From contig JAZDGJ010000028.1 in NCBI GenBank assembly GCA_043807015.1, positions 1,537-65,536 of the forward strand: 64,000 nucleotides of DNA. Direction: 5' to 3'. Each line of letters begins with the position of its first letter. Positions within the stretch are counted from its first letter, which is position 1. Origin of the DNA: Candidatus Woesearchaeota archaeon (GTDB taxonomy: Archaea; Nanobdellota; Nanobdellia; Woesearchaeales; UBA10216). Both the position numbers and the translations under genes were made by a program. Of this stretch, positions 8 through 63,236 are shown piece by piece. The notes below the pieces were generated by a model. That model was not told the DNA's origin, did not search any database, and saw only the letters and a list, made by a program, of their open reading frames with translations.

Positions 8-2581
8 GTGAAAGAATCGCTGCTGATGCAGCTTATGGGCGGCGTGCAGAAAAAAAGAAGTGATGGAATTGTTTCCAGGGGGGATATCCATATTTTGCTT
101 GTTGGAGACCCTGGAGCAGGAAAGTCACAGATACTCAAGAGGATGAGCATGATTGCGCCTAAAGGAAGGTATGTTAGCGGAAAAGGAGTATCTGGAGCAG
201 GCATCACCGCAAGCGTTGTAAAAGACGAATTCCTTGGCGGCTGGAGTTTGGAAGCTGGAGCGTTAGTGCTTGCAAACAACGGCCTGGTAAGCATTGATGA
301 GATGGACAAGATGAGCCATGAGGACAGAGGCGCGATGCATGAGGCGATGGAGCAGCAATGCCTGCATTATGATTCGAGAATCACTCTCGCAGATGGTTCT
401 GAACAGCTAATCGGGGAATATGTGGAAAGGCTAATGAAAGCACATGAGGCAAAAATAATTCACGGAAAAGACTGCTTAATTCTGCCTGCCCACGACTTGA
501 ATTTAAGGATATTCACAACAGATTGGGAAAAAATATGCGAAACAAAAATCAACCGCATTAGCAAACATGTTGCCCCGAAGCAATTCATAAAAATAACGGC
601 AGGCAACGGGAGAACCGTAATAGTCACACCCGAGCACCCCTTCTTCTGCATGAAGAACGGGAAGATTATAACGAAGAGGTCTGACACCATCATGGCAGGT
701 GATTGGGTTCCGGTGCCCCTTAAGCTGCCTGTAGAAGGCGCAAAGCAGTTTTTTAACATTGAAAAAGAGGAAATATTCAATAAAAGGTCAAAACATCACA
801 TCATTGTTCCTGTGAGCAATTGCAGTGATTTCTACAAGCTTATCGGATATATCCTGTCTGAGGGCTCTAAAGAAACAAATAGGGGGAAACAGATAGGGAT
901 AAATTTTACAAACAAGAACCCGCTAGTTTTAGAGGAGTTCTGCAGGCTGATGAAAAAAGTTTTTGGGATTAAGCCTTATAAACAGGCGAGAATTGACGAA
1001 CATGGAACGAGGTGGATGCTCAGATATACATCAAGGGAGCTGGCAGAGTTTATCAGGAAGGCCTGCCCGTCAATAATAGAGAAAGCGAATAGAAAACAGG
1101 TGCCCCAACTGGCAATGAAAGCCAGGAAAAATGACGTTGCCTGCATGTTAACGCGCCTATTTGAAGGCGATGGCCACGTTTCTAAAAAGGAGAGAACCAT
1201 CAGGATCGGTTACACTACCAATAGCGGGGTTCTCGCTGAACAAGTGCAGGATCTTCTCCTGAGGTTCGGAATAAGAAGCAACATAACAAAAAATAAGAAA
1301 ACGCACAAGACGCTCATAACAGGGCGCGACAATTTACTAAAGTTCAACCAAAACATAGGATTTGTCAGCCACAAGAAAAACGAGATTGTAAGGGAGTATC
1401 TCGAGAAAGCGCAGCGCAGCAGAACAGTTAAGGACTTGGTTCCAGAGGTTTCGGAGCACGTCTATGGGCTTCTGAAGAAATATGATGTTAAAGCTGTAGG
1501 GAAATATAAACTCTCTGCTATAAGAGACAACTACATCCGCAGGAGAACGAGCATCCAAAGGAATCAGCTGCAAAAATACGTTATGCTTCTTGAGGGGAAG
1601 GTTTTTGGGAAAGACATGGAACTCCTGCAGAATTTGAGAAAGCTTGCATTTGGGGCGATAGGATTTGAAAAAGTCAGAAACGTGGAAGTAATTGAAAACA
1701 ACGATCAGGTATGGTGTTATGACCTCACTGTAGAGCCGAACCATACTTTTGTATCGCAAAATATGATTTTGCACAACACTGTCAGCATTTCAAAAGCCAA
1801 CATACAGGCGACACTGCTGGCTAAAACAACTGTGCTTGCAGCTGCAAACCCGAAGTTTGGAAGGTTTGACCCGTATGGCATAATTGCAGAGCAGATTGAC
1901 CTTCCGCCTACGCTGATAAACCGTTTTGACTTGATATTCCCAATAAAAGATTTGCCCTCGACAGAAAGGGATGAGAAAATGGCAAGGCATATTTTAAACC
2001 TGCACCAGATGCCTGAGACAGAGCTGCAGGAAATCCCAACTCCGTTTTTGAAAAAATATGTTGCTTATGCGAGGCAGCGAGTATCACCAAAGCTGACAGA
2101 CAGCGCGCTTAACGAGATTAAGGACTTTTATGTAACGATGCGAAACAAGGGCGGCGGAGATGAGAGAGCTGCAAGGGTAATTCCTATTTCTGCAAGGCAG
2201 CTTGAAGCTTTGGTGAGATTATCAGAAGCCTCTGCAAGGGTAAGGCTTTCTGATAAGGTCCTGAAAAAGGACGCCAGGCGTGCAATAGACCTGATTACAT
2301 ACTGTTTGCTCCAGGTTGGCCTTGACAGGGAGACTGGAAAAATTGACATCGACAGGATTGCTACAGGCATCGGCGCTTCACAGCGTGACAAGATATTCCA
2401 GATAAAGGAGATTCTGGCGACGCTTGAGAACAAGATAGGCAAGACAATACCAATTGACGACGTGCTTAAGGCTGCAACAGAGCGCGGCATAGGCGAGAGC
2501 GAGGCAGAGGAGATAATTGAGAAGCTGAAGCGCTCCGGCGACGTCTATGAACCAAGGTTCGGGTTTGTGAGCAAGATTTGA
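8..2581 (+). CDS. mcm: MCM replicative helicase, 5'-truncated by window edge; AAA+ core with Walker A GDPGAGKS, Walker B/sensor region and C-terminal winged helix; host of an intein
   Basis: Extein residues match the MCM AAA+ domain (ILLVGDPGAGKSQ, SIDEMDKM, arginine finger region SRFDLIF, C-terminal WH). The ORF begins at the window edge on a GTG, so the true N-terminus lies upstream. Confidence 0.9.
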   Translation: MKESLLMQLMGGVQKKRSDGIVSRGDIHILLVGDPGAGKSQILKRMSMIAPKGRYVSGKGVSGAGITASVVKDEFLGGWSLEAGALVLANNGLVSIDEMDKMSHEDRGAMHEAMEQQCLHYDSRITLADGSEQLIGEYVERLMKAHEAKIIHGKDCLILPAHDLNLRIFTTDWEKICETKINRISKHVAPKQFIKITAGNGRTVIVTPEHPFFCMKNGKIITKRSDTIMAGDWVPVPLKLPVEGAKQFFNIEKEEIFNKRSKHHIIVPVSNCSDFYKLIGYILSEGSKETNRGKQIGINFTNKNPLVLEEFCRLMKKVFGIKPYKQARIDEHGTRWMLRYTSRELAEFIRKACPSIIEKANRKQVPQLAMKARKNDVACMLTRLFEGDGHVSKKERTIRIGYTTNSGVLAEQVQDLLLRFGIRSNITKNKKTHKTLITGRDNLLKFNQNIGFVSHKKNEIVREYLEKAQRSRTVKDLVPEVSEHVYGLLKKYDVKAVGKYKLSAIRDNYIRRRTSIQRNQLQKYVMLLEGKVFGKDMELLQNLRKLAFGAIGFEKVRNVEVIENNDQVWCYDLTVEPNHTFVSQNMILHNTVSISKANIQATLLAKTTVLAAANPKFGRFDPYGIIAEQIDLPPTLINRFDLIFPIKDLPSTERDEKMARHILNLHQMPETELQEIPTPFLKKYVAYARQRVSPKLTDSALNEIKDFYVTMRNKGGGDERAARVIPISARQLEALVRLSEASARVRLSDKVLKKDARRAIDLITYCLLQVGLDRETGKIDIDRIATGIGASQRDKIFQIKEILATLENKIGKTIPIDDVLKAATERGIGESEAEEIIEKLKRSGDVYEPRFGFVSKI
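359..1777 (+). mobile_element. Intein (about 473 aa) with LAGLIDADG homing-endonuclease domain inserted in MCM after ...AMEQQ
   Basis: Starts with Cys (CLHYDSRITLADGSE, block A) and ends ...ILHN followed by Thr (+1 nucleophile). Two LAGLIDADG-type motifs (LIGYILSEGS and RLFEGDGHV) lie between the splicing blocks. MCM sequence resumes in frame (TVSISKANIQATLLAKT). Confidence 0.8.
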
Positions 2582-23687: not shown

Positions 23688-24641
23688 ATGAGCACGTTGT
23701 GGGCGGAGAAGTACAGGCCTTCTGATTTTTCTGAAATAGTCGGCCAGGATGAGATAGTCAGCAGGCTGAAGGCTTTCGTCAAGCAGAAGAACATGCCCCA
23801 TCTTCTGTTTGCAGGTCCTCCTGGAGTGGGTAAGACCAGTGCAGCCTTGGTTGTTGCGAAGAAGCTTTATGGCGAGAGCTGGCGTGAGAATGTTCTTGAG
23901 CTTAATGCTTCTGATGAAAGAGGCATTGATGTGATTCGTGTCAAGGTCAAGGACTTTGCAAGGACAAAGTCAATGGGTGATGCGCCTTTCAAGATTTGCC
24001 TTCTTGACGAGTGCGACTCACTGACAAAGGAAGCCCAGCAAGCCTTGAGAAGAACGATGGAAAATTACTCAAATACCTGCAGGTTCATACTTCTTGCAAA
24101 TTACTCTTCAAAAATCATTGACCCCATACAGAGCAGGTGCGCTGTATTCAGGTTCAAGCTTCTGCCGAAGGAAAGCATATTCAAAATCATTGACGAAATC
24201 ATCAAACATGAAGGGCTGAAGATTGATGAAAAGGCAAAGGAAGCGCTTTACATAGTCAGCGAAGGCGACTGCAGGCGCCTTGAGAATGTTCTCCAGAGCT
24301 CTGCTTCGGTTTCCCAAACCATTACGTCAGAAACAATATACTCTGTCGCGAGCGTTGCAAAACCAAAAGAAATAAAAGAGATAATTTCCTTGGCTTTGAA
24401 TAACAAGTTCATTCCTGCTAGGGAAAAGCTTATAGAAACAATGCTCTCTTACGGGCTTTCAGGGCTTGACATCATAAAGCAGATCCAGAAGGAAGCTGTT
24501 GAGCTTGATGTTGAGTCTTCAAAGAAGATGAAGATAATTGAGAACTGCGCTGAAATAGAGTTCAGGATGGTTGAGGGCGCAGACGAGTTTGTCCAGCTCG
24601 AGGCATTGTTAAGCAGTATAGCGTCCTTAAATGACAAGTGA
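23688..24641 (+). CDS. rfcS: replication factor C small subunit
   Basis: WAEKYRP...LLFAGPPGVGKTS Walker A, DECD Walker B, SRC motif (QSRCAVFRF). ATG 23688. The ORF-track start is TTG. Confidence 0.85.
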   Translation: MSTLWAEKYRPSDFSEIVGQDEIVSRLKAFVKQKNMPHLLFAGPPGVGKTSAALVVAKKLYGESWRENVLELNASDERGIDVIRVKVKDFARTKSMGDAPFKICLLDECDSLTKEAQQALRRTMENYSNTCRFILLANYSSKIIDPIQSRCAVFRFKLLPKESIFKIIDEIIKHEGLKIDEKAKEALYIVSEGDCRRLENVLQSSASVSQTITSETIYSVASVAKPKEIKEIISLALNNKFIPAREKLIETMLSYGLSGLDIIKQIQKEAVELDVESSKKMKIIENCAEIEFRMVEGADEFVQLEALLSSIASLNDK

Positions 24642-26655
24642 AAAAAGAGGGGTTTGGGAGGAGCATGCTTCTAGTGAGAGTCCTTTATCTAGAAACCTTC
24701 AGGACCAAGCCGCTGAAATTCTGAGAAAACAGCTTGACAAGTCGATAAGCGCGCAGGAAAGCATTCATTCAGAGCTGAAAAGCCAGCTCGCACTCAAGGA
24801 AAAAGACATTGAAACCCTGAAGTCAATAATCCTGAGAAAAAATCAGGAGGTTGCAGCCCTTTCAAAAAGCCTGCAGGCAAAAAACGAGACAGACGAATAT
24901 TACGTCAAACGCCTGAAAGAGGCGCTTCTGAAAAAAGATGCCGCCAACCAGCAGATTTTCTCAAGCCTGAGGCAGCAGCTCTCTGCGAAAGACGAGGAAA
25001 TCAGGAAAAAGGGGTTTTCCTCAACAGAATCCAGCAGGGCAAATGAGCAGCTTCTGAAACAGCTGAATGAGCATCTTGCCCAGGCATATGAGCAGATTGA
25101 CCAGCTCAAGACTTTTGTCGCTAATGAGACAGCGCGCTCGGAAAACCTTTCCAATGTCTTTGAAAAAGAGATTGCTGAAAAGGAAGCCATCATCGCAGGG
25201 CTGCAAAAGTCAAAGCTTAATGCCAGCGGCAATTCTGCCCTGGCAGCGCAGTTGGAGCAGTCTGAAAGAAAACTGAAGGAGAAAGAGGCAACCTGCAGGA
25301 ATCTCCAAATGGAGCTTGCAAAGCTGAGATACCATCATGAAGACGTGTCAAGGCAGCTGCAGGAAAAAGACAACATGCAGGATTATCCCGATTATGGAAC
25401 GCAAATAGGCGTCCTTAAGATGAGCCTTGCTGAAAAGGATTCTGAAATAAAGCGCCTTGAGGCAGCAGCATTTGAAGCACACCGCTCCAATGAGAGAATT
25501 GCCCGGCAGCTGAATGCCCAGCTTAGAGAGGCATATGAAGAAATAGACCAGCTCAAGCATTTTGTTACTTCAGAATCTGTTAAATCCTCAGGTCTTGAAG
25601 AGGAGTTTGACAAGCAGCTTGCGGAAAAGGACGCAAGGATAGCTGAGCTTGAACAGAGCCTTAGGGAAAGCTCAAGACCGAAGTCTTCAGGCAGGGAAAC
25701 CGCTGAATTAAAGCAGCTCCTGAGCGTGAAAGAAGAGAGCTCTGCAGCTTTGCAGGCAGACCTGCTGAAGCTTAAAGCCCAGAACACCAACCTTTCAAGA
25801 AAGCTTGAAACCAGCAGAAAGATGATTGCCCAGAGCGAAGAAAATTTTGCAAAGCTGGCTGAGGAGATCAACTCCCAGCACCAGCAGCGAATCAAGGATT
25901 TGATAACGAAAAATTCAGTAAATGAGGCTGCGCTAAGGTCAGAAATGGAGCAGATCAAGGCTGAGATGAAAAAGAAAGACAGCCTCATTGAGGCTGAAAC
26001 CCTTAAGGTTGATGATGCTTTGACCCAGTTCTCTGTCAAGTACCAGCAGCTTCTCAAGCTGAGAAACTCAGAGGGAATGGTTTCTCACGTTGAAGAGATT
26101 GAGAAATCCAGGATTGAAAAAGAAAACATGTCTGAGCTTCTGAAGGACGCAGAGGCAAAGCTTCAGCGCGCAATTGAGAGGGAAGCTGCTGTTGACAGGA
26201 GAGAGCAGATGATTATGAAAGAGCAGGACGCCATAAACAAGCAGCTTGACCTGTTGAACGCAGCAGGCTTTGAAATCGGCAGGACTAAGGATTATCTGAA
26301 GAAGAAGCTTGCCGAAGTTGAGCTGCCTGCGCCTGAAAGCCTGGCTTCTGTGATGGAAGAGTTTTCCACAGAGCACGTTCCTGAAGAGATACGGATGGAA
26401 ATTCCCGCGCCAGAGAAGCTAATGCCTGTGCAGAGGCTAAAACCAGCGGAAAAGCCAAAGCTCTTCCAACCCAAGAAAGAGGAATTCTTCAACGCAAACA
26501 CATATTCTGAGATTGACGAGCTTAAGTCAGTCATTGAGATAGCAACCCAGCAGGGCGAATCCCTTGAAAAGGTAAGGCAGTCGCTTATCGACTCAGGCTA
26601 CTCAAAAGCCAGCATAGAAAAAGCCTTCAGCAGCATGCAGACTGTTAAGCGGTAG
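24631..26655 (+). CDS. large coiled-coil protein with internal ~70-aa tandem-diverged repeats; function unknown
   Basis: 674 aa, almost entirely heptad/charged. Repeat A ...AYEQIDQLKTFVANETARSENLSNVFEKEIAEKEAIIAGLQKS and repeat B ...AYEEIDQLKHFVTSESVKSSGLEEEFDKQLAEKDARIAELEQSL. Start overlaps the rfcS stop by 11 nt. Confidence 0.6.
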   Translation: MTSEKRGVWEEHASSESPLSRNLQDQAAEILRKQLDKSISAQESIHSELKSQLALKEKDIETLKSIILRKNQEVAALSKSLQAKNETDEYYVKRLKEALLKKDAANQQIFSSLRQQLSAKDEEIRKKGFSSTESSRANEQLLKQLNEHLAQAYEQIDQLKTFVANETARSENLSNVFEKEIAEKEAIIAGLQKSKLNASGNSALAAQLEQSERKLKEKEATCRNLQMELAKLRYHHEDVSRQLQEKDNMQDYPDYGTQIGVLKMSLAEKDSEIKRLEAAAFEAHRSNERIARQLNAQLREAYEEIDQLKHFVTSESVKSSGLEEEFDKQLAEKDARIAELEQSLRESSRPKSSGRETAELKQLLSVKEESSAALQADLLKLKAQNTNLSRKLETSRKMIAQSEENFAKLAEEINSQHQQRIKDLITKNSVNEAALRSEMEQIKAEMKKKDSLIEAETLKVDDALTQFSVKYQQLLKLRNSEGMVSHVEEIEKSRIEKENMSELLKDAEAKLQRAIEREAAVDRREQMIMKEQDAINKQLDLLNAAGFEIGRTKDYLKKKLAEVELPAPESLASVMEEFSTEHVPEEIRMEIPAPEKLMPVQRLKPAEKPKLFQPKKEEFFNANTYSEIDELKSVIEIATQQGESLEKVRQSLIDSGYSKASIEKAFSSMQTVKR

Positions 26656-29946: not shown

Positions 29947-32187
29947 TCAGGTTGTCGCGCTATTCTCTGGTCTCACAATTTCTATGCTGGTTGAAGTCTG
30001 AAGCGTGAACTCATATTCTGCGTTAGCGGTTATTGTGACTGGCGTGCAGAGGGCATCTCCCAGAAGCGTTGTTTCCAAAGCACCAACTATATCCTCCAGT
30101 TGGCACCTATAGGAAATTACCTCGCCTTTTTCAGGATTAGATAGAACTTTTGGTCTGCCCGTGTATGTTCCGCCACTCCCGGTAAAATCACAAAGTAGTG
30201 GGTCTGCAGTATTCTTCATTAGAAGTCCAGCGGGCAACGTCACAGTCAAGCCATTGTCCTTTACCTTGCTAATATATCCATTGTGAATTCCTTTCAGCGA
30301 TACAAGCAGCGTAAGAGGTGCTGGTGCCTCTCCAGTCAAACCTAAGCCAACAACTACCGGCATTGTCTTCTGGCTAAGCGTAATGCCGAGAGCTACAGGG
30401 GAGTTTGAAGGCACGTATGTGGCAACTGGCATTGCATATTCCTGAAGCCCGCATTGAGTCAATACACTTTCCCCGCCCTTTTCAGCAGCTATTCGCTTTA
30501 CCTTGTTCACAAATACTGGCGTGTAAGAGGAACTTGTTGCCATATTGTAAGCTGCCCTTGCCCTTACTGAATGGCTTCCGAGAGTCAGGCAGCCACCTAC
30601 ATTGGTATCTGGCAGAGGTTCGCAGACTTCCTTTGAATCAGCAGCCGTTGTGCAACATTCGCTACCCTTTGGGGTTGCACCTTCAGGGCACTTTGCTTCT
30701 TCGCAGGTAGTAGCGGCTATAGGCGGGCTTACTCTAGGGGCAAAAAAAACACACCGGAATTCAGTGCTTTCAGGATAATATAAGAAAAATCCTTTCGTAT
30801 CCCGGCAATCCGTCCACGGATTAATGTCCAATTTATACCTTGTCTTGACGAATTCAAGCTTATCCTGTATTTTTTGTGATTCTGTAATCTGGAAGTCTGC
30901 ATAGACATTTACGGGCGTGCTAGACGTGCTTACTCCAAACGTTTTTTTAGAGTATTCCGAAGGCGCAAGCTCCAGCCCGGTTTGAACCACGGTGGTGTCT
31001 GCCGCCTGTGACGGCGCTATGGTGTTCGCCATGGCTTGGGCTTGTATAGGCACATTTGTCACGATGCTGAACAAGCCCGCAATGCCGGCATACACCTGGT
31101 CCATCACAGGCACGCCGTTGAACAAATTACGACCATTCTCAATTATATCGTTTAACTGCTGTTTGCCTTCTTCGGTTACGAGGGGCGAATTAACTCCTGG
31201 CAAGCTCATTCCTGCGGCTGTTGCTGGACCCCCTGCAATGAACACAAACGCGATCATAAATACAATCACCCTAATAATGGTTGCTCCAACCCTGTTGCTG
31301 GTGTTTTTCAGGGCTCCGATGTAAAATATCCAGGTTATATTGAGGAACTGGTTTGTGAATGGGTAAAGGAAGCTGCCCCAAAGGCTGTCTTTGCTAACGC
31401 CTCCCCATTGGGGCCAATTTTGGCTTAGATGCAGAACATTTGTAAGGTATGCGGTTATGGTGAGGACGATAAATGTCAGTTCAACTCCCAATGCAAACTT
31501 GTTTCTCAAGAACTGCCTTATCTGCGGTATTACCATTGAAAAAACAACGACTACAAGAACTATAGTCCATACGGGCACACCCTCGCCGCTAACAATTCCG
31601 GCAGCAAATACAGGCACGAAGAAAGAAATCATGAAGACATATGTCGCTTGCTTCCCGTATATGCTCCAGCAGTAAAGGAGCATAATGAAGTCTGCCATGA
31701 AAGCCGTCATTGTGTTTGGCGCCCGCAATTTCAGCCAGTAACAAAATACCGCCAACCCGAGTGCCACCAGAAGGCTTATCGTAGAACCCGTGTTTGGGTT
31801 TGCGTTATTGCCGATAACGCCTGCGCCAGACTTTACCTTGCCCCAGGCTTCTGCAAGCTTGCTTTCTCCTTTTGCCTGGTCTTTTTCAGCGTTTGCTTCT
31901 TTTCCAGCTGTCTTGTTTGCTTCATTCCTGTCAGCATCTTCCTGCTTGGCTCTTGCAACTTCTTCCTGCCTTCTTTCTTCCTCTATCGTTGCAAGCCTTT
32001 GCTGTGCTTCAGCATTCTTTTCCTGTGATTCAACCCACCTTTTGAACAGCTCCTTGTCTGTGCTATCGGCAGGGTTTGCAGCTATTCCTGCAAACTGCGG
32101 CGGTCTTTCCTGGACAGCTACAGCTCCCCTTTTAGCCTCTCTTTCTTCGTGGAGTTTTTCTAACCATGCGTCCCAGTCGCGTGTCAT
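29947..32187 (-). CDS. large polytopic membrane protein: charged coiled-coil N-terminal (cytoplasmic) domain, about 7-8 TM helices, about 400-aa Cys-rich extracytoplasmic C-terminal domain
   Basis: N-terminus EERRQEEVARAKQEDADRNEANK. TM block from ISLLVALGLAVFCYW to IRVIVFMIAFVFIAGG. C-terminal region with CEEAKCPEGATPKGSECCTTAADSKEVCEP. Confidence 0.6.
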   Translation of the reverse strand: MTRDWDAWLEKLHEEREAKRGAVAVQERPPQFAGIAANPADSTDKELFKRWVESQEKNAEAQQRLATIEEERRQEEVARAKQEDADRNEANKTAGKEANAEKDQAKGESKLAEAWGKVKSGAGVIGNNANPNTGSTISLLVALGLAVFCYWLKLRAPNTMTAFMADFIMLLYCWSIYGKQATYVFMISFFVPVFAAGIVSGEGVPVWTIVLVVVVFSMVIPQIRQFLRNKFALGVELTFIVLTITAYLTNVLHLSQNWPQWGGVSKDSLWGSFLYPFTNQFLNITWIFYIGALKNTSNRVGATIIRVIVFMIAFVFIAGGPATAAGMSLPGVNSPLVTEEGKQQLNDIIENGRNLFNGVPVMDQVYAGIAGLFSIVTNVPIQAQAMANTIAPSQAADTTVVQTGLELAPSEYSKKTFGVSTSSTPVNVYADFQITESQKIQDKLEFVKTRYKLDINPWTDCRDTKGFFLYYPESTEFRCVFFAPRVSPPIAATTCEEAKCPEGATPKGSECCTTAADSKEVCEPLPDTNVGGCLTLGSHSVRARAAYNMATSSSYTPVFVNKVKRIAAEKGGESVLTQCGLQEYAMPVATYVPSNSPVALGITLSQKTMPVVVGLGLTGEAPAPLTLLVSLKGIHNGYISKVKDNGLTVTLPAGLLMKNTADPLLCDFTGSGGTYTGRPKVLSNPEKGEVISYRCQLEDIVGALETTLLGDALCTPVTITANAEYEFTLQTSTSIEIVRPENSATT

Positions 32188-55651: not shown

Positions 55652-56950
55652 TTAAAGATTGCTCTTTTTTCTTGGCGTTCCTGCCCGCCTTCTAGCATAG
55701 TTCACAGGGTTCCTAACCCTGCACACTGCAGAATCGCATTTTATCCCCATATCGGAATAATATGCCTTGTTGTCACAGTTCGGCGGCAGTATTGCTTTTT
55801 TCTGGTATTTCTGATAGCGGAGCTGCCCGACAATGTAGACGTCCTTAAGCGGCTGCTTGTTTTTCAAGTTCCATTCTTTCAGCCTTTTTTCAATGCTCTC
55901 AAAGTCCCATCCGCAGCTTCTCAGGAAGTTTGAGAGTATGAACAGGCTTCTTTTCCTTCCATCGTCTACTCCTTCAAGCAGTTTCAGTATGCAGGGAGGG
56001 AAAAATTTCTCTGGGATTGCCTCCTCAGGGATATCATATTCTTTCTCCTCAGAAGCCTTTTGTTCTATCTTTGGAGAAAAGTCCATTGCCTCTGTGAGAA
56101 GCAGCGCTGCCTCGTTCTTTTTCACATTTTTCCTGTCAATGAAAACCAATCCTGCCTTGACTTTTGAGGGCATTGCGCTTTCCTTGCTGAAGCTCAGGAT
56201 CTCTTCTTCCTTTATCGGTAGGGAAACAAGACCTGATTTTTCGTGCAGGGAATATGGCATCCTGTAAAGGTGCCTTGAAGAGATAAGCAGCGTGTCTATT
56301 GCAAGGAATGGCTCAACATTTAGGATTAATGTCTCGCCTGATTTCATCCTTATCTCTTCCTGCTTCTTGCCTGTCTTCTGCATTATTGCCGAGAAGTCAT
56401 TTTTCTCAAGCTTCATTATTGCCTCGCCAAGGGGCTTTTTTATCATCTCCTTGATGTAAAAAGCAATTCTTCTTGCTGCTTCAGGAAACATAAGCCTTGT
56501 CTCAATGCTGCCGATTTTCTCAGGAAACGCCTCGTATGGCACGCCTATGTGAAAGCCCTTGTTGCCTGAGAACTTTATTGAGCAGGATTTTATGCCCATT
56601 TTCTTCAGTGTCTTGGCAACAAGGTCTGCAGCAACCTTTGAATATTCTATGAACTGGCAGTCTATGTCCAGCACCAAATCCCACCCGGTTCTTAAAGCTT
56701 CAATTTCGCTCTTCTGCATCATTGGATTCAGCTGCATCGGGTTGCTCCACAGCTCTTCTGAGGCGTGAAAAGAAGTCGCGCCCTGCTTTGCAAACTCAAG
56801 TATGTCTCTGGGATAGTTAAGAACATCAGGCCTTTTGCCAAACTGATCGTTAAACCTTACGGCAACTTCCTTGTTCTTGGCATGCTCAACCATCGTCTTC
56901 TGGATATCTTCCCTTTTGTAGTAAGTCAGAAGCGTGCTGAGGTGAATCAT
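55652..56950 (-). CDS. priS: DNA primase small (catalytic) subunit PriS with C-terminal Cys-containing extension
   Basis: DLVLDIDCQ (catalytic Asp motif) and FSGNKGFHIGVP (SGxRGxH). 432 aa versus the usual ~340. C-terminal PPNCDNK...IKCDSAVC. Confidence 0.8.
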   Translation of the reverse strand: MIHLSTLLTYYKREDIQKTMVEHAKNKEVAVRFNDQFGKRPDVLNYPRDILEFAKQGATSFHASEELWSNPMQLNPMMQKSEIEALRTGWDLVLDIDCQFIEYSKVAADLVAKTLKKMGIKSCSIKFSGNKGFHIGVPYEAFPEKIGSIETRLMFPEAARRIAFYIKEMIKKPLGEAIMKLEKNDFSAIMQKTGKKQEEIRMKSGETLILNVEPFLAIDTLLISSRHLYRMPYSLHEKSGLVSLPIKEEEILSFSKESAMPSKVKAGLVFIDRKNVKKNEAALLLTEAMDFSPKIEQKASEEKEYDIPEEAIPEKFFPPCILKLLEGVDDGRKRSLFILSNFLRSCGWDFESIEKRLKEWNLKNKQPLKDVYIVGQLRYQKYQKKAILPPNCDNKAYYSDMGIKCDSAVCRVRNPVNYARRRAGTPRKKSNL

Positions 56951-57003
56951 ACATTCTTGGAAAAAGGGTAATGTATTTAATAGTTGTTGCTTGACATATC
57001 GCT

Positions 57004-57369
57004 ATGGCGGCAGTTGAGAAACAGGAATTTCAGGAAATGATCCAGAAACTCTCTTCCTCAGGCAAAGCCATAATCGTTGAGGGCAAGAAAGACAGGAAAG
57101 CGCTTGAGGCATTAGGATTACAGAACAGGATTTTCATCTTGGGCAGACCTTTATACGTAGTGGCCGAAGACGTAGCTACTACTACGAAAGACGTCGTTAT
57201 CCTTACTGATTTGGACCGCAAGGGAAAGGAGCTTTATGGAAAACTGAATACGCAGCTGCAGCGCCTGGGCGTCACTGTGGACAATAAGTTCAGGACTTTC
57301 CTTTTCAAGAAAACAAAGTTCAGGCAGATTGAGGGGTTAAGGTGTAACATTTTTGAAGGAGTCCTTTGA
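57004..57369 (+). CDS. small standalone Toprim-domain protein
   Basis: IIVEGKKDRKAL (Toprim Glu) ... VVILTDLDRKGKELYG (DxD). ATG 57004 with TATA gtatttaatag at about -25. Last 50 nt antisense-overlap small paralog A. Confidence 0.6.
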   Translation: MAAVEKQEFQEMIQKLSSSGKAIIVEGKKDRKALEALGLQNRIFILGRPLYVVAEDVATTTKDVVILTDLDRKGKELYGKLNTQLQRLGVTVDNKFRTFLFKKTKFRQIEGLRCNIFEGVL

Positions 57370-57679
57370 AGTCTTCAAATGTGGAAACAAGGCCTACCTC
57401 TGACTTTATTGCTTTATTCCTTAATATTCCCGCCAGAATAATCTGCAATGACTTTGCTTCGTTTATATTGTCGGACTCAATGTGGCATGGAGAATCATAA
57501 GGTCTTCCGCCAAGAGAATTTGGGTAAGTAAGTACCCCGTGATAATTCCTGATTTCAGTTACGTAATGCCCTTCTTTGCATTCTGGTTCAAGGGTGCGCA
57601 GGGTGTAACGCATTCTGTGAAGCTTGATAGAATTGATGAATGGTTTCCGCGCCGCCTTAACTCTTGCCTCAATCCCCAT
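57320..57679 (-). CDS. hypothetical small protein, tandem paralog A (119 aa)
   Basis: MGIEARVKAA...ECKEGHY...GGRPYDSPCHIESD...EAK...TPQSA. Own duplicated TATA upstream. Confidence 0.5.
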   Translation of the reverse strand: MGIEARVKAARKPFINSIKLHRMRYTLRTLEPECKEGHYVTEIRNYHGVLTYPNSLGGRPYDSPCHIESDNINEAKSLQIILAGILRNKAIKSEVGLVSTFEDFKGLLQKCYTLTPQSA

Positions 57680-57741
57680 AGAAACGGGAAATCAAGCCAC
57701 GCTTTTAAGGTTTATTAAAAGAATAAGTCAGAAAACAAGAT

Positions 57742-58113
57742 TCAGGCAGATTGAGGGGTTAAGTGTGTAGCCGCGTCTTTTAAAGAAATGTACCGTTCTT
57801 TGAATTCTCGAAATGTATCAACAAGGTCCGCCTCTGTTTTCTTATTCCTTAGCATTTCAAACAGAATAGTATGCAACGCCTTTGCTTCGCCTCTTTTGTC
57901 GGACTCAATAAAGCACGGAGAAGGATAAGTTCTTCCGCCAAGAGGCTTTGGGTAAGTAATAACTAAATGACCATCATTCCCGATCGAAGTTACGTAATAA
58001 TGCCCTTTTTGGCATTCTATCTTATAGGTGAGTAGGGTGTAAGTCATTCCGTCAATCACGATAGTATCGGTGAGTGGTTTCACCGCTGCCTTAACTCTTG
58101 CCTCAATTCCCAT
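57742..58113 (-). CDS. hypothetical small protein, tandem paralog B (123 aa)
   Basis: MGIEARVKAA...ECQKGHYY...GGRTYPSPCFIESD...EAK...LTPQSA. About 50 percent identical to paralog A, with conserved N- and C-termini. Confidence 0.5.
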   Translation of the reverse strand: MGIEARVKAAVKPLTDTIVIDGMTYTLLTYKIECQKGHYYVTSIGNDGHLVITYPKPLGGRTYPSPCFIESDKRGEAKALHTILFEMLRNKKTEADLVDTFREFKERYISLKDAATHLTPQSA

Positions 58114-58172
58114 AGAAACGGAGAATCAAGCCGCACTTTTAAGTTTTATTATAGGAATAATCAAAAAGCAGC

Positions 58173-58682
58173 TTAAGCCGCAGCTTCTGACTCTATCTCC
58201 CGTATCTTTTCTTTCAGGAAGTCAATCGTTCTTGCGTTGTCCTGCTGCTCCATTACGCAGCCGCATTCAGGGCATTTGAAGTTCGCTTCTGCAGCCTTGT
58301 CAAAGTCCATCCTTGAGCAGGCTTTTGGGCAGATGTAGAAATTGTTAATGTTTGCTTTTTCAGCTTCAAGCCTTTGCCTGAAGTGCTCAAGCTTCTCCTT
58401 TTTCAAGCCGTCAATGAGCTCCTTTATCCTGTTCTTCTGGAAAGTCCAGTAGCTAATATACCAGCCCTTTTTCCTGTCCTTCCTGCGCTTGTAGCTAACA
58501 AGGTTGTAAGTGTGAAGCCTGTAAAGCACGTTCCTGACTACTTGGATGTCTTCTTTGAAAGTGCCAGCCATCTTAAACTCAGACACGTCCTTCTTTCCCT
58601 TTAGAAAGCGGACTATCTTGAGTGCATCCTCGCCAATTATCTGGCTGATAACGTCATCTGTTTTCTTGTCAGTTATTCTCAT
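58173..58682 (-). CDS. transcription factor E (TFE) paralog, copy 2
   Basis: WH (SEFKMAGTFKEDIQVVRNVLYRL ... KGWYISYWTF) plus Zn ribbon (CPECGCVMEQQDN). About 40 percent identical to copy 1. Confidence 0.7.
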   Translation of the reverse strand: MRITDKKTDDVISQIIGEDALKIVRFLKGKKDVSEFKMAGTFKEDIQVVRNVLYRLHTYNLVSYKRRKDRKKGWYISYWTFQKNRIKELIDGLKKEKLEHFRQRLEAEKANINNFYICPKACSRMDFDKAAEANFKCPECGCVMEQQDNARTIDFLKEKIREIESEAAA

Positions 58683-58841: not shown

Positions 58842-61031
58842 TTATCCTTCGTACTCCTTATCCATAATTCGCCTTAAGTCTGCTGCTTTCTTTTCTCCTA
58901 TCTTCTCCACTTCTTTGAGCTCTTCTTCAGAGGCATTAGCAATTTTCTTTATGCTTTTGAAGCGCTTAAGCAGCGATTTGGCAATCACTGACTCCACCCC
59001 TGGAAGGGCAGAAACAATGTATTCCTGAAGCTCGTTTTCAGTTAATGGCTTTTTCTCAGCATGAAGCGAGAAGCTTTCCTTTTCAATCTGTTCCCTTTTT
59101 GCCAGCGCAATCAGTATTCCTGCAGTCTCATTGTAGTCCTTTGTTTTCAGCAGGGGTATTCCATAGCTGCCAACAATCATTGCCAGCATGCCCATTATTG
59201 CATTCGGGTGCACATTTCTGACAGAGTAGATGTCTTCCTCGCCTTCTATGAGCACAAGCGGCCTTTCAAAGTTATACTTCAGGTTCTTCATCTGCTGGAC
59301 AAGCCTGCCGTCAAGTATTGAATTGACAAAGTCATCAGTCCTTTTCACCTCTACCCCCACTCTGCTGCTGCACAAATAGTCTGCAACTTGGAGAGTCGTC
59401 ATCTCAACATCTACGCCTTGCTCTATCAGCTCTTTAATCACTCCAGAGCCCTTTTCCCTTACATCTGCGATTATTTTCACTTTCGCGTCTGTGTAAGTCT
59501 TTAGCGGCTGCTGCTTCTCCAGCTTTATGTGGTCTTTCAGATTCTCAAGTATTCTGTGCATTTTCCTTTCCTTTCCTTGTGAGACATACCTGAAAACCTC
59601 ATCCCTTGTATTCCGGGTAACGAGTATTATCACCCTCCCCTTCTCCTGCCTTCCAGTCCTTCCTCTTCTCTGTATATGCCTTATGGCAGAGGGGATTGTC
59701 TCATAGAATATGACCAGGTCAACTTTTGGAATGTCCAGCCCCTCCTCGCCGATAGAAGTTGCAATAAGTATGTTGAAGCTGCCATCCCTGAACAGGTCAA
59801 GCAGCTCCTTCTGCTCATTCTGGCTCATTCCTGTTTCTCCCTTTTTCATCTGCCCGACAAAAATCTGTGCTTTGGCGCCTTCAGCCTTGTCCAGTTCCTC
59901 TTTTATCCTCACCGCAGAGTCCCTGTATTGCGTGAAGATAATCATCTTCACTTCCTTATCTTTCCCAATCTCATTGGTAACAAGCCTCTTGAGCTCTGCT
60001 ATTTTCGGGTGCTCAATTTTGTTCTCATACAGCCTTTCAATTTTTATGAATGCAGACCTGAAGTTTAAGTCTGCAACAAGGTTCTTGACCGCTTTTACTT
60101 TTGAGCTGGCTGCCTCCAGCATCAGCTTCTCCATGTATTTGTGCAGTGATGCAATGCCCTGTGTCTCAAGCAGTTCCAAAGCATGGCTTGCCTTTATTGC
60201 CTCAGCCAGCAATGAGATTGACTTCAGCACCGGAAAGTCTCTGTTGCCGCGGGCCATTTCGCCATGAAGTGATGCCTGCAGCTCCAGCAGTTCGATTTTC
60301 CTTACTCCAGATGCCTGCCTAAGAAAACCGTATTTTTTGACTTCCTCAAGCTTTGACTTTATGCAGCTCTCAAGGAACTTCTTTATCTCAAGCATTTCAA
60401 CTGGCAGGTCTACTTTTACAAAGTCTATCTGCAGCTCCTGCACGTATGGCTTTACGTCAGGGTCATTTTCTGTCCTTACCTCAATTTTTTCAATTCCAAG
60501 GTTCTTGCAGACTTCCTTTATCTTCTCAAGGTCGCTTCCTGGCGAAGCTGTCAGGGCAAGTATTCTTGGAAACTTTGCAAGCTTCAGGTATTGCTTTGCA
60601 ACCCATCCGTAGCTGTAGTCGCCAACTGCGCGATGCGCCTCATCAACACCCAAAAGCGAGACTTCCTCAAGGTTTACTTTCTTGTTTATTATGTCATTTT
60701 CCAAGCCCTGGGGCGTGCTGAATATTATTTTTGAATTCTTCCACAGCGCAGCCCTTTTTTCAGGCGAAACAAGCCCAGTCATGATAGCCATCTTATCCTC
60801 TTCAATCTCAAAGTGCCTCTTGAACACCTCAAAGTACTGCTCAATAAGCGGCCTTGTTGGCCCAATCAGAAGTATCTTTGAATCAGGATGCTGCCTCAAC
60901 CTTTGTGCCGCAAGCATAAGGAATATGTTTGTCTTGCCCATGCCAGTAGGCAGCACCACAAGAGTGTTGTAATTCACGGCAGTGCCAAGTATTGTTTCCT
61001 GGTAGAGCCTTGGCGTAAAGTCCTTAATCAT
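58842..61031 (-). CDS. hef: Hef-type helicase-nuclease (FANCM/XPF-like: SF2 helicase + ERCC4 nuclease + HhH)
   Basis: LVVLPTGMGKT Walker A, DEAH, helicase C motifs. ERCC4-like VGVEVKRTDDF. C-terminal HhH (IANASEEELKEVEKIGEKKAADL). Confidence 0.8.
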   Translation of the reverse strand: MIKDFTPRLYQETILGTAVNYNTLVVLPTGMGKTNIFLMLAAQRLRQHPDSKILLIGPTRPLIEQYFEVFKRHFEIEEDKMAIMTGLVSPEKRAALWKNSKIIFSTPQGLENDIINKKVNLEEVSLLGVDEAHRAVGDYSYGWVAKQYLKLAKFPRILALTASPGSDLEKIKEVCKNLGIEKIEVRTENDPDVKPYVQELQIDFVKVDLPVEMLEIKKFLESCIKSKLEEVKKYGFLRQASGVRKIELLELQASLHGEMARGNRDFPVLKSISLLAEAIKASHALELLETQGIASLHKYMEKLMLEAASSKVKAVKNLVADLNFRSAFIKIERLYENKIEHPKIAELKRLVTNEIGKDKEVKMIIFTQYRDSAVRIKEELDKAEGAKAQIFVGQMKKGETGMSQNEQKELLDLFRDGSFNILIATSIGEEGLDIPKVDLVIFYETIPSAIRHIQRRGRTGRQEKGRVIILVTRNTRDEVFRYVSQGKERKMHRILENLKDHIKLEKQQPLKTYTDAKVKIIADVREKGSGVIKELIEQGVDVEMTTLQVADYLCSSRVGVEVKRTDDFVNSILDGRLVQQMKNLKYNFERPLVLIEGEEDIYSVRNVHPNAIMGMLAMIVGSYGIPLLKTKDYNETAGILIALAKREQIEKESFSLHAEKKPLTENELQEYIVSALPGVESVIAKSLLKRFKSIKKIANASEEELKEVEKIGEKKAADLRRIMDKEYEG

Positions 61032-61228: not shown

Positions 61229-61855
61229 ATGTACCCAAAAGCCCAGTGGTGGATGGAGCGCTCGTTATTTCCAGAATACCAGCTTGCCTATGATGAAATC
61301 CTGAAATACATCCCGAAGTGCAATTACCTCCTTGATATCGGCTGCGGAACAGGCGAGCTTCTAAAGCGCGTCTCAAAATCCCAAAAAGCCAGATACATCA
61401 CAGGACTTGACATCTCAAAAGAGCTTCTCGCAAAGGCAGCCGAAAACCTAAGATGCTGCAAAGTCAATCTTGTCTATGACAATATCCTTGACACAAAGCT
61501 TCCCAAGGAAGCATTTGACTGCGTTACTTTCACCTTTCCGGCAATCGTTGCGCCAAAAAGCCTTCTCACAAATGCCTCTCCTGAGCAGGTCACCAGAGCG
61601 CTTCTTTACAAAACTTTGGCAAACATTGCATCCCTGATAAAGAAAGGCGGTACTTTTGTCCAGGTGGAGTTTGATGCATATGATGAAAATCCTGAGGCAA
61701 ATGCCCGCGTTATCTACGGGCAGCTCTGCAGGCAGCATGGCTTAACCCTCCAAAGCCTAAAGTTCTATCAAAACGAGAAAATAACTGATGTCGTTGACAT
61801 AAAAAAGGAGGCAAAATACAAGGGATATGTTGTCATTGTCTCAAAGAAGCCTTAA
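61229..61855 (+). CDS. class I SAM-dependent methyltransferase
   Basis: LDIGCGTGELL motif I. TATA aatatatag at about -25. Confidence 0.6.
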   Translation: MYPKAQWWMERSLFPEYQLAYDEILKYIPKCNYLLDIGCGTGELLKRVSKSQKARYITGLDISKELLAKAAENLRCCKVNLVYDNILDTKLPKEAFDCVTFTFPAIVAPKSLLTNASPEQVTRALLYKTLANIASLIKKGGTFVQVEFDAYDENPEANARVIYGQLCRQHGLTLQSLKFYQNEKITDVVDIKKEAKYKGYVVIVSKKP

Positions 61856-62169
61856 ACCCCGAATTTCTTGTGGGCGTAATAGCTGCCCATAATTCCAGCA
61901 ATAAATAACAGCAGAATCAGCACTGGCGAGCCTTCTTTGTTGCCTATTATGTATCCGAGTATGAAGCCGGTCATCAGCAGGATGTGGGGAAAAAAGTTGT
62001 CCTTTTTCTTGTGGTATAGGATTTTTCCAGACGCAAGCCCTGCCAGCAGCACTGTGCCATAGCTCAGGAAAACGTTGTTTATGAAGAGTGACATAAGGAA
62101 GCCTATGAGAAGGAGTATTATGAATGATACCTCAACCCAGTTTGTCAGGAACTCAAAGGCTTTTTTCAT
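61852..62169 (-). CDS. small membrane protein (3 TM)
   Basis: Hydrophobic ORF of 105 aa. Confidence 0.35.
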   Translation of the reverse strand: MKKAFEFLTNWVEVSFIILLLIGFLMSLFINNVFLSYGTVLLAGLASGKILYHKKKDNFFPHILLMTGFILGYIIGNKEGSPVLILLLFIAGIMGSYYAHKKFGV

Positions 62170-62203: not shown

Positions 62204-62485
62204 ATGAAAATGAACCCGCTGCTTGTCTTCATGGCAATACTTGACCTTGTAGCAGCCCTTTCGCTGATGCTTATCCAGTACAGCTTTTTTCCCGCCCGGT
62301 TCGCTTATGTGTGTGTTGTTTACCTTGTTTTTAAAGGTTTTCTATTCTTCAGTGATGTTGCTAGCAAGATAGACTTGATTATCGGGCTATACCTTCTTTG
62401 CTCAGCAATTTTCGGGTTCCACAGCTTTGTAAATTACATCATGGCAATATACCTTGTCCAGAAAGCAGTACTCAGCTTTTTTTAG
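62204..62485 (+). CDS. small membrane protein
   Basis: Hydrophobic ORF of 93 aa. Confidence 0.35.
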   Translation: MKMNPLLVFMAILDLVAALSLMLIQYSFFPARFAYVCVVYLVFKGFLFFSDVASKIDLIIGLYLLCSAIFGFHSFVNYIMAIYLVQKAVLSFF

Positions 62486-63236
62486 GCCACCCGTCGCCGT
62501 GCCAAAACTGGTCATTCATGACAATTGCTGCAACTATTGTACCAAGGACAAATCCGATTGCCAGTATCCATATCAGGCTTAGCCAGCCGGTCAGCAGAAG
62601 AACACCAACAACAGAAACAAACACAAAAATCGAGAAGTATATTATCCTGCTTGCATAAAGCAGGTTTACTCCGTCAAGCGGCGGTATGGGCAGAAGGTTT
62701 GTTATCGCAAAAAGCACATTTATCAGGATCATTTTGTGCACAAACGCATCCGGAAGAAAAGTCATCATCTTGAAAATCATCGCCACGAAAAGGTTTGCCA
62801 GGCAAGCCAATGCCGAGACCCTGCCCAGCACAAATAAACTCGTGCGGTGCCTGAAATATCCCAGCCTGTGCGCCTCCAGCATATGGAACTGTATTCCGCC
62901 GTAAGCAAGGAAAATGAGCTTTCCGTAGGACATGAAAGAAAGAACCAGCCCTGCAATAAGCCCGTACATGAATGGCTTGAATTCAACCCTAAAACCCTGC
63001 TCAAGCCCCATTATCCTTCTGACAGACTCGTGCACAAAAATCGCCACCGCCACTGCGATAAGGCATAAGAAAAAATTGCCAAGCCAGCTGAAGAAATTGA
63101 AAACCTCGCTTGGGTCATTAAAGCCTGCAATAAACGCGAGCAATACGGCAGACGCTACAAGCCATGCCTTCTCAGATGTGCTGAATGCATAATACCTCTT
63201 TATCTTGTCCACAAGGTTGAAAAAACCATAGACCAT
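62472..63236 (-). CDS. site-2-protease (M50)-like polytopic membrane protein; LDG motif present, HExxH apparently degenerate (HESVR)
   Basis: NLLPIPPLDGVNLL matches the S2P NxxPxxxLDG motif. FVHESVRRIMG lacks the second His. Confidence 0.5.
   Translation of the reverse strand: MVYGFFNLVDKIKRYYAFSTSEKAWLVASAVLLAFIAGFNDPSEVFNFFSWLGNFFLCLIAVAVAIFVHESVRRIMGLEQGFRVEFKPFMYGLIAGLVLSFMSYGKLIFLAYGGIQFHMLEAHRLGYFRHRTSLFVLGRVSALACLANLFVAMIFKMMTFLPDAFVHKMILINVLFAITNLLPIPPLDGVNLLYASRIIYFSIFVFVSVVGVLLLTGWLSLIWILAIGFVLGTIVAAIVMNDQFWHGDGWPKKS

Follow-up and report, generated by a model that had tools for sequence, protein, structure and literature searches.

The 64,000-nt window that we analysed, from a contig of a Candidatus Woesearchaeota archaeon, contains a fused PriS-PriL primase gene (432 aa; 55652-56950, minus strand) and, divergent from it, a gene for a small stand-alone Toprim protein (121 aa; 57004-57369, plus strand). 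After the Toprim gene come two head-to-tail units of 422-434 bp, which encode the small paralogues A (119 aa, pI 9.2; 57320-57679, minus strand; NCBI MFH1181876.1, V1702_02870) and B (123 aa, pI 8.5; 57742-58113, minus strand; NCBI MFH1181877.1, V1702_02875). The right-hand border of this variable slot is formed by the gene for TFE-alpha (169 aa; 58173-58682, minus strand).

An earlier note on this DNA had named the primase gene priS; a primase is indeed present, but as a fused protein, with Pfam DNA_primase_S (6.6e-7) and DNA_primase_lrg (7.6e-4) in one ORF and NCBIfam matches to PriS as well as PriL. Its orthologues in related loci are 42-87% identical. TFE-alpha is matched by Pfam TFIIE_alpha (2.5e-15) and NCBIfam TFE (7.7e-38), and orthologues that are 78-90% identical occupy the equivalent position in relatives. 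The same note had treated this gene as a TFE paralog; nothing shows paralogy, and it is the syntenic TFE-alpha of the clade. The tfe stop codon lies within a terminator-like site with a hairpin and a T-run (58160-58181).

The mini-Toprim protein and its primase partner

The existence of a stand-alone 121-aa Toprim protein with a conserved Glu and a DxD motif, as claimed in the earlier note, was borne out. The protein passes the Pfam thresholds for Toprim_4 (PF13662; 28.8 bits, cut-off 25) and Toprim (PF01751; 25.5 bits, cut-off 23.1), and the Glu (E26) and both aspartates of the DxD (D69 and D71) are invariant in an alignment of 14 homologues. The NCBIfam PRK04017 models match it at 2e-17 to 3e-12, the best being PRK04017.1-1 (2.1e-17, residues 5-102). 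Nevertheless, its score against the curated PRK04017 equivalog model is 63.1 bits, below the cut-off of 120, and the other four models also score below theirs. Consequently, the protein belongs to a related, divergent DPANN branch of PRK04017 and is not an equivalog.

More than 335 homologues of the protein were found; those of 110-130 aa number in the hundreds among Woesearchaeota and Nanoarchaeota. The motif RQIEGL is conserved across the family. A family profile matches PDB 1T6T, an archaeal stand-alone mini-Toprim of 118 aa described as a 'putative protein', at 1.5e-19 over its full length (positions 1-112), and the window protein resembles these PRK04017/1T6T-like proteins throughout while keeping the Glu and the DxD. 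JGI annotation labels mini-Toprim proteins as COG1658-type 'RNase M5'. The RNase M5 equivalog model TIGR00334 scores the window protein at only 14.8 bits, where the cut-off is 110.65, and the match of the family profile to RNase M5 in PDB 6TG6 is marginal (E 0.0044, over the Toprim core). Literature searches for small Toprims of archaea turned up nothing specific to them. The Toprim protein of the window is an unremarkable representative of a mini-Toprim family that is widespread in archaea. The Toprim gene had previously been grouped with A and B as a separate island; it is instead a conserved gene of the housekeeping type.

Its most constant companion is the primase. The earlier note had asked whether the Toprim and the small proteins co-occur next to the primase. 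For the Toprim gene the answer is positive, since it adjoins the primase throughout a whole clade, at 18 of 47 informative loci; the small genes are not coupled to it. Among reference genomes approached through the primase, the two loci with readable flanks (L001 and L002, about 60% identical) have a different gene on the Toprim side of it and so carry no information about the slot. Conserved synteny identifies the divergently transcribed fused primase as the predicted partner of the mini-Toprim. The 53-nt region between the two genes contains a TATA-like box, TATTTAATAG (56974-56983), about 30 nt from both start codons, and its position and likeness to other upstream regions in the window suggest that it may act as such. 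This divergent pairing of PriS-PriL and mini-Toprim across a Woesearchaeota clade is the only conserved context signal at the locus, and it promises to say more about what the mini-Toprim family does than the small proteins do.

Anatomy of the duplicated unit

The tandem duplication of about 425 bp and its two ORFs were as the earlier note had described them, with direct-repeat families spaced 422, 428 and 434 nt apart. No third copy of the unit occurs within the window. A and B are 55% identical as proteins by BLASTP (E 7e-39), or 59% in a MAFFT alignment, and their DNA is about 75-80% identical. With 20-25% of positions differing between the copies, an assembly artefact is an unlikely source of the tandem. 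The opposite strand of A and B contains no conserved ORF.

Conservation is concentrated at the ends of the unit (59 of 66 positions, compared with 223 of 299 in the interior; Fisher p = 0.009). Each copy has its own A/T-rich, TATA-like box, as had been proposed, and the 50 nt upstream of the two start codons are 82% identical. In A the A/T-rich boxes, CTTTTAATAAACCTTAAAAGCG on the minus strand, lie 21-42 nt upstream of the ATG (57700-57721); those of B were located from its sequence and its alignment with the A copy (58134-58155, minus strand). A promoter role for them is probable from this arrangement. The proteins themselves are identical at their first ten residues (MGIEARVKAA) and last six (LTPQSA).

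A 34-nt repeat is present at 57308-57341 and, 94% identical, at 57730-57763 (family D3). The first copy is the genuine 3′ end of the Toprim gene, where it encodes KKTKFRQIEGL, and its antisense supplies the last seven codons and the stop of A. The second is a duplicated, non-functional fragment of that 3′ end; its plus strand reads QKTRFRQIEGLSV followed by a stop, and its antisense supplies the last seven codons and the stop of B. LTPQSA is accordingly the antisense of the invariant RQIEGL motif of the Toprim family, copied along with the unit, and is not evidence of a conserved C-terminus in A and B. The earlier note had counted both ends as strictly conserved and had placed the 3′ flank of the first copy antisense within the last 16 Toprim codons. 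The overlap exists, but its 50 nt (57320-57369) are the coding end of A, to which the 3′ flank of the repeat adds 12 nt (57308-57319). The two repeat copies differ at 2 of 34 nt, fewer than the 25% divergence of the interior would give (binomial P = 0.004).

Searches for relatives of A and B were uniformly negative. There was no match in Pfam or NCBIfam (E ≤ 1) or in PADLOC, and the best in PHROG had an E of 0.13. No PDB sequence was matched at E ≤ 10 by B or by two-sequence and three-sequence profiles. A word-indexed search of 5.8 billion clusters returned only self-matches, as did HMMER run in full against 1.84 billion representatives, apart from one protein (P0003). That candidate was rejected as spurious: it is a low-complexity repeat protein that matches the VITYP..LGG segment only, eight times. 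Two scans of viral contigs gave no relatives, and with filters off an A/B HMM found nothing better than E 1.8 among 4848 stop-to-stop segments of at least 40 aa in 84 related loci. Assignment to a known, unrelated family, which the earlier note had named as grounds for abandoning its reading, was thus not obtained in Pfam, NCBIfam, PHROG, PADLOC or PDB. The note's failure to assign a fold was likewise repeated by structure prediction, with AF2 models from B-first and A-first runs reaching a pLDDT of just 44-46; Foldseek comparison of these low-confidence models with PDB gave nothing below E 2.4.

Two other origins for the region were considered and rejected. Descent of A and B from tfe received no support from hhalign (P = 0.32). 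A structured non-coding RNA was discarded after the window gave no Rfam match and folding z scores were 0.08 and -1.11. Neither integrase nor transposase genes nor inverted repeats bounding the units were found, and the neighbouring ORFs are core genes.

The slot in related genomes

In genomes of moderate relatedness, whose tfe is about 51-78% identical, the junction between the Toprim and tfe genes, which lie tail to tail, is empty: Toprim directly abuts or overlaps tfe. For example, in L085 the two genes overlap by 21 nt and synteny is otherwise identical, and in L020 they are 160 nt apart. In the closest relatives the position of A and B is taken, in the same orientation, by one or two genes of 156-176 aa that have no annotation. 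A gene occupies the slot in at least five related contigs, four of the five slot-gene relatives, from JGI sample 3300075153, being known from gene tables alone. We assume that the slot genes of these relatives form one family with A and B, here called S.

The most informative comparison is with L086 (Logan SRR27458548), whose Hef, TFE and primase are 90%, 90% and 87% identical to those of the window and whose flanking DNA is 82-83% identical. Between these flanks lies unalignable DNA with a single 156-aa ORF (P0244) and no Toprim gene. The ORF is immediately downstream of tfe in the orientation of B, and has no Pfam match. Its local alignment with B scores 64, compared with 27.6 ± 4.5 for shuffled sequences (0 of 3000 as high), and hhalign gives P = 6e-4; A alone is not significantly similar to it (P = 0.12). 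The likeness to B rests on one 33-residue segment in the C-terminal helix region, with the intervening DNA near noise. In a forced alignment the two Cys columns of A and B are also Cys in the L086 protein, which differs in having about 60 extra residues in its N-terminal region and is about 26% identical over aligned columns. It lacks the LTPQSA tail because its genome lacks the Toprim gene from which that tail is read. B and the L086 gene, both next to tfe, are likely to be positional counterparts.

These comparisons bear directly on the proposal, drawn from the surrounding genes, that the small proteins take part in DNA transactions. The presence of small genes is not coupled to that of Toprim: the majority of relatives have Toprim without them, and L086, the closest readable relative, has a small gene without Toprim. 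The proposal is not upheld, and nothing links A and B to DNA replication or repair.

Origin and possible role of the small proteins

The explanation that we favour, and consider moderately probable, is that A and B are tandem paralogues of S, a young, clade-restricted and very fast-evolving small-protein gene at the mini-Toprim/tfe tail-to-tail junction of one narrow Woesearchaeota sub-clade. S would have been gained at this junction in the ancestor of the sub-clade and then tandemly duplicated, plausibly through unequal recombination between Toprim-tail copies, and selection on it may be relaxed or diversifying. It would encode a soluble, basic protein with a mass of about 13.5 kDa that most likely binds something, in a non-enzymatic and dispensable accessory role outside the primase/Toprim machinery. 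Such non-enzymatic binding is the most likely role as a default, given that no motif or fold was recognised, and not as a positive result. Counting against the S-gene explanation are the high conservation of the Toprim-tail copy beside B, for which it accounts only in part, the dN/dS near 1 and weak codon bias, which would also suit decaying ORFs, and a link to the L086 gene that is significant for B only.

In evolutionary class, though not in mechanism, A and B resemble taxonomically restricted (orphan) genes and strain-specific islets. Like these, they are short, lack detectable homologues outside a narrow clade, have weak codon bias, low GC3 and a dN/dS near 1, and sit in a slot whose content varies between close relatives. 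Unlike plain orphan genes, they are tandemly duplicated, and a conserved motif of the neighbouring gene, read in antisense, provides their 3′ end.

Two alternatives seem to us improbable, each to a similar degree. The first is that the interval from Toprim to tfe and Hef is an insertion hot-spot, that A and B are accessory cargo (toxin-antitoxin-like, immunity or anti-virus genes) and that the slot genes of neighbours are unrelated cargo. The distance from Toprim to Hef does range from 79 nt to 4.9 kb among relatives, and the interval contains a variety of genes, among them a PemK/MazF toxin and its DUF7557 partner in L018, along with HtpX and LemA. The GC3 of A and B is also atypical (0.40-0.42, compared with 0.47-0.60 in the three host genes scored), and rapid divergence between tandem paralogues is typical of immunity-type genes, which we count in favour of cargo. 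However, A and B match nothing in PADLOC or PHROG, have no relatives in viral contigs and are paralogues of each other and not a two-component pair, and the locus shows none of the integrase, transposase or flanking inverted repeats of a mobile element. Further, the significant similarity of B to the positionally equivalent gene of L086 argues for descent in place over independent insertion.

The second is that A and B are non-functional, annotation-level ORFs in a duplicated and neutrally drifting stretch, representing a dying gene or one that never functioned. Between A and B, dN/dS is 1.01 and differences are spread over the three codon positions as 38/27/27, with no third-position excess. 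About 49% of codons are identical, near the 51% expected under neutral divergence of 20%, and the codon-usage score is positive but weaker than that of host genes. The dN/dS near 1 and the weak codon bias also fit decaying or never-functional ORFs, and the lack of homologues beyond the sub-clade and of a confident AF2 fold points the same way. Against this, both frames have stayed open after about 92 substitutions (chance about 0.05) and all four indels between A and B are in frame (P about 0.01 if lengths were random). In addition, conservation of the promoter boxes and of the first 30 coding nt exceeds that of the interior, the opposite strand offers no conserved ORF, and a gene has been kept at the slot in the related contigs.

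A more elaborate version of the S family is less likely still. It would make A, B and the sister genes of 156-176 aa a hypervariable, positively selected family with a new fold, kept beside tfe and primase/Toprim to modulate one of them or to oppose some viral or host factor directed against them. The tandem copies would then be diversified alleles, and the Toprim-tail repeat a recombination substrate that amplifies or swaps them.

We consider it very doubtful that A and B act with primase, Toprim and Hef in a DNA transaction, as small nucleases of PD-(D/E)xK or Hjc-like type. This likeness, suggested in the earlier note, drew on conserved acidic and Lys residues (IEC..GH; IESD...EAK) and on replication and repair genes as neighbours, but permissive searches of Pfam, NCBIfam and PDB gave it no profile match. 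In PD-(D/E)xK sites, the D and the (D/E)xK residues lie on successive strands of an alpha-beta-beta-beta-alpha-beta core. D72 and E76-x-K78 are only four residues apart, at a strand-to-helix transition or helix start with no beta-hairpin in the low-confidence AF2 models (pLDDT 44-46), where E76-x-K78 falls in a helix and misfits this geometry. The equivalent segment of L086 is HEKDMARAL, in which the Lys is not kept, and the presence of small genes is uncoupled from that of the Toprim gene.

Equally remote is an origin of A, B and S as degenerate Toprim-fold paralogues through inverted duplication of the adjacent Toprim gene. It is hinted at by similar lengths (119/123 and 121 aa), convergent orientation, E...ExD residues in collinear order and local scores of 53 and 46 between B and two distant Toprims (P = 5e-4 and 4e-3 from shuffles), with an alignment that runs collinearly through the DxD-helix-FRxF region. 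Profile and aggregate tests led to its rejection: the score of B against the Toprim of the window itself is a non-significant 29, comparison of the A/B profile with the Toprim family by hhalign yields P = 0.38, an HMM of 120 Toprim sequences assigns 1.4, -1.2 and -1.2 bits to B, A and the 156-aa S protein, and aggregate scores against 120 Toprims equal those of shuffles (P 0.06-0.86).

As things stand, little changes: the locus holds a member of a known, conserved Toprim family together with a further pair of orphan genes from a DPANN archaeon. The young S gene that we favour would nonetheless make it a clean and datable case, absent at an intact tail-to-tail junction in moderate relatives and present in the closest. 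S appears to evolve so fast that neighbours of 90% identity flank an almost unrecognisable gene; in A and B its last codons are taken, in antisense, from a motif conserved in the adjacent Toprim gene. The locus is therefore useful material on the birth and turnover of orphan genes in reduced archaeal genomes. The Toprim tail may also have left a third, degenerate remnant at the tfe stop (58160-58177), a tentative identification made by eye against the Toprim/tfe junction of L085 and covering a very short stretch.

Organisation of the duplicated unit

Paralogues A and B belong to a Candidatus Woesearchaeota MAG and are surrounded by core chromosome. The ribosomal-protein operon, its visible end formed by L4 and L3, reaches the primase (55652-56950, minus strand), a 432-aa protein with PriS and PriL domains in a single ORF. 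Beyond it lie the Toprim ORF (121 aa; 57004-57369, plus strand), paralogue A (119 aa; 57320-57679, minus strand; NCBI MFH1181876.1, V1702_02870) and paralogue B (123 aa; 57742-58113, minus strand; NCBI MFH1181877.1, V1702_02875). The flank opposite the primase carries TFE (58173-58682) and Hef (58842-61031), both on the minus strand. The window also encodes the PolD subunits DP1 and DP2, and an MCM helicase ORF (8-2581, plus strand), truncated by the window start, that holds an intein (Pfam Intein_splicing, 1.2e-18) with a LAGLIDADG homing-endonuclease domain (LAGLIDADG_3, 7.3e-28).

A Toprim ORF followed by two duplicated small-protein units, as described in the earlier note, is borne out by the ORF calls, by direct-repeat families at spacings of 422, 428 and 434 nt, and by the identity of the A and B proteins (55% by BLASTP, E = 7e-39; 59% by MAFFT). 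No third copy of the unit occurs within the window. DNA identity between the units is 82% in the 50 nt upstream of the start, 90% across the first 30 coding nt, 75% in the interior, and 89% over the last 21 coding nt and 3′ flank; the interior has thus diverged more than the ends have (Fisher p = 0.009).

A 34-nt repeat (57308-57341 and 57730-57763, 94% identical) reads on the plus strand as KKTKFRQIEGL, the conserved Toprim C-terminus, and on the minus strand as ...LTPQSA-stop. The identical ends of A and B are present as first noted, but LTPQSA is the antisense of Toprim's conserved end and not a strictly conserved terminus in its own right. The stop of A falls inside the genuine Toprim tail, with an overlap of 50 nt, and that of B inside a copied tail fragment whose plus-strand reading is still QKTRFRQIEGLSV-stop. 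Because both genes end in Toprim-tail sequence, the duplicated segment spans from within the 3′ end of Toprim to a little way upstream of the A promoter, which is the layout expected from a simple tandem duplication. The tail copy beside B carries 2 mismatches in 34 nt, where about 9 are predicted from the interior divergence (P = 0.004). Three explanations are possible: the copy is under selection as B's own end or terminator, it has undergone gene conversion against the Toprim tail, or it descends from a lineage where it still belonged to a Toprim gene.

The sequence TCAAAAAGCAGCTTAAG at the tfe stop (58160-58181) aligns, if two deletions are allowed, with the overlap of Toprim tail and tfe stop at the empty site of a relative, L085. 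This short sequence may be a degenerate third Toprim-tail copy, which would give the order repeat-A-repeat-B-repeat.

A variable slot between Toprim and tfe

L085, an NCBI Woesearchaeota MAG with TFE 78% and Hef 74% identical to those of the window, has the same gene order (L22...L3, primase, Toprim on the plus strand, tfe on the minus strand, AhpC, Hef, methyltransferase). Its site is empty, since the convergent Toprim and tfe genes share 21 nt at their 3′ ends. A second locus, L020, has a 160-nt gap at the site. All closer relatives found, located via TFE (87-90% identical) or the Toprim protein (72-75%), have one or two Pfam-less genes there, oriented as A and B in all contigs but one and often overlapping the Toprim tail. 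Their products are of 171 aa; 168 aa; 159 and 176 aa; 164 (plus strand) and 107 aa (minus strand); and 156 aa.

The 156-aa ORF, from locus L086 of Logan SRR27458548, is the slot gene covered by sequence comparison with A and B. Here Hef and TFE are each 90% and primase 87% identical to the window, and flanking DNA 82-83%. The stretch from the tfe stop to the primase promoter measures 540 nt in L086, with this one ORF, compared with 1172 nt in the window. In the C-terminal helix region B matches the ORF with a local score of 64 against 27.6 +/- 4.5 for shuffles (0/3000), with hhalign P = 6e-4 and BLASTP E = 0.009; A alone is not significant (P = 0.12), and DNA identity is near noise. The ORF forms a cluster of its own and lacks Pfam matches. 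No Toprim gene lies between it and the conserved primase promoter (L086:3223-3803). From this arrangement, the mini-Toprim may be dispensable at the L086 locus, or may have relocated in that lineage.

As Toprim is found without small genes (L085, L020) and a small gene without Toprim (L086), the two are uncoupled. The idea of a DNA-transaction island is unsupported given this uncoupling and the small genes' want of homology or fold support. Judging from the loci compared, the slot that the small genes occupy is variable, and their gain probably took place inside one narrow sub-clade. We lean towards reading A and B as shortened, tandemly duplicated forms of one small gene at the junction of Toprim and tfe, a gene that is young, confined to the clade and evolving very rapidly. 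Its putative product most likely has an accessory, dispensable role and no enzymatic activity, and the locus represents a tidy case for orphan-gene evolution.

Among more distant relatives, the Toprim-to-Hef interval ranges from 79 nt to 4.9 kb and contains HtpX, LemA, a PemK/MazF pair and other genes. We consider it rather unlikely that A and B are cargo of an accessory or defence type sitting in a hot-spot.

Some of the Toprim-to-Hef intervals in these distant relatives house compact two-gene modules. A PemK/MazF toxin and a DUF7557 partner occupy the interval at L018:7474-8002 (minus strand). L021:8910-9448 (plus strand) and L029:7337-7869 (minus strand) have in common a conserved pair of 106-aa and 68-71-aa proteins without Pfam matches, the former with an N-terminal CxxC...CxxC, zinc-ribbon-like motif. 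Pfam-less ORFs (1e-5) in the window encode 746 aa (29947-32187, minus strand), 674 aa (24631-26655, plus strand), 254 aa (62472-63236, minus strand) and 105 aa (61852-62169, minus strand); unannotated ORFs of 105-106 and 255-256 aa stand at matching positions in L085 and JGI contigs, matched by position and length alone.

Coding status and affinities of A and B

Evidence against coding comprises a dN/dS of 1.01 between A and B, differences spread 38/27/27 by codon position, a codon-usage score that is positive yet lower than that of host genes, and a GC3 of 0.40-0.42 where the three scored host genes have 0.47-0.60. That A and B are non-functional ORFs nevertheless seems improbable. All four indels are in frame, the simulated odds of the frame staying open after the 92 observed substitutions are ~0.05, and the plus strand has no ORF common to both copies. 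Both copies also retain an A/T-rich box, 21-42 nt ahead of the ATG and similar to those preceding other window genes, and the units give no sign of structured RNA (Rfam, folding stability). These observations support a coding reading, in which A and B are real genes, weakly constrained or diversifying.

Searches with A and B returned zero matches in Pfam, NCBIfam, PHROGs, PADLOC and the PDB, only themselves and one spurious repeat protein in two very large protein collections, and no relatives in viral contigs. AlphaFold on the two-sequence alignment gave low-confidence models (pLDDT 44 and 46), with an N-terminal beta region and then two long C-terminal helices in common; Foldseek returned only noise. 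In these models the D...ExK residues fall at the start of the first long helix and so match a PD-(D/E)xK site poorly. With no profile or PDB match either, the weak PD-(D/E)xK or Hjc-like resemblance once suggested is unsupported, and a PD-(D/E)xK nuclease is very unlikely. Scores of 53 and 46 for B against two distant Toprim proteins, in collinear alignment, raised the prospect of an inverted duplication of the Toprim gene, but profile-profile comparison (P = 0.38), a 120-sequence Toprim HMM (<= 1.4 bits) and aggregate scores against 120 Toprims gave no support, leaving degenerate Toprim paralogues highly improbable. No relationship of A or B to TFE was detected.

The mini-Toprim protein and its primase partner

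The standalone Toprim protein, with its Glu and DxD, is confirmed by Toprim_4 and Toprim scores that exceed their Pfam thresholds and by E26, D69 and D71, which are invariant in a 14-sequence alignment, as is a C-terminal R-Q-x-E-G. Five NCBIfam PRK04017 'hypothetical protein' models match it at 2e-17 to 3e-12, all below their equivalog cut-offs. The 14-sequence profile matches PDB 1T6T ('putative protein', 118 aa) over its full length (1.5e-19), and RNase M5 at only 0.0044. There are at least 335 homologues of ~110-130 aa, and those with a named source are annotated as Woesearchaeota, Nanoarchaeota or Nanoarchaeia. The window protein is an ordinary member of this family.

A fused primase is divergent within 1.5 kb of Toprim, usually 45-100 nt away, in 18 of the 47 metagenomic loci having enough upstream sequence. 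The pair occupies 55652-57369 in the window and recurs in L008, L014, L016, L021, L023, L029, L032-L036 and others. Its spacer in the window is 53 nt and contains just one TATA-like box, TATTTAATAG (56974-56983). This pairing is the sole conserved association in the region. The divergent arrangement suggests that the two genes are co-regulated and functionally linked, which gives the uncharacterised mini-Toprim family a more useful lead than the small genes do. Fused primases range from 430 to 499 aa among relatives (window 55652-56950, L085:3448-4947, L001 and L002 compared), and their PriL-like part is weakly detected by Pfam and NCBIfam (E = 7.6e-4 to 5e-2).
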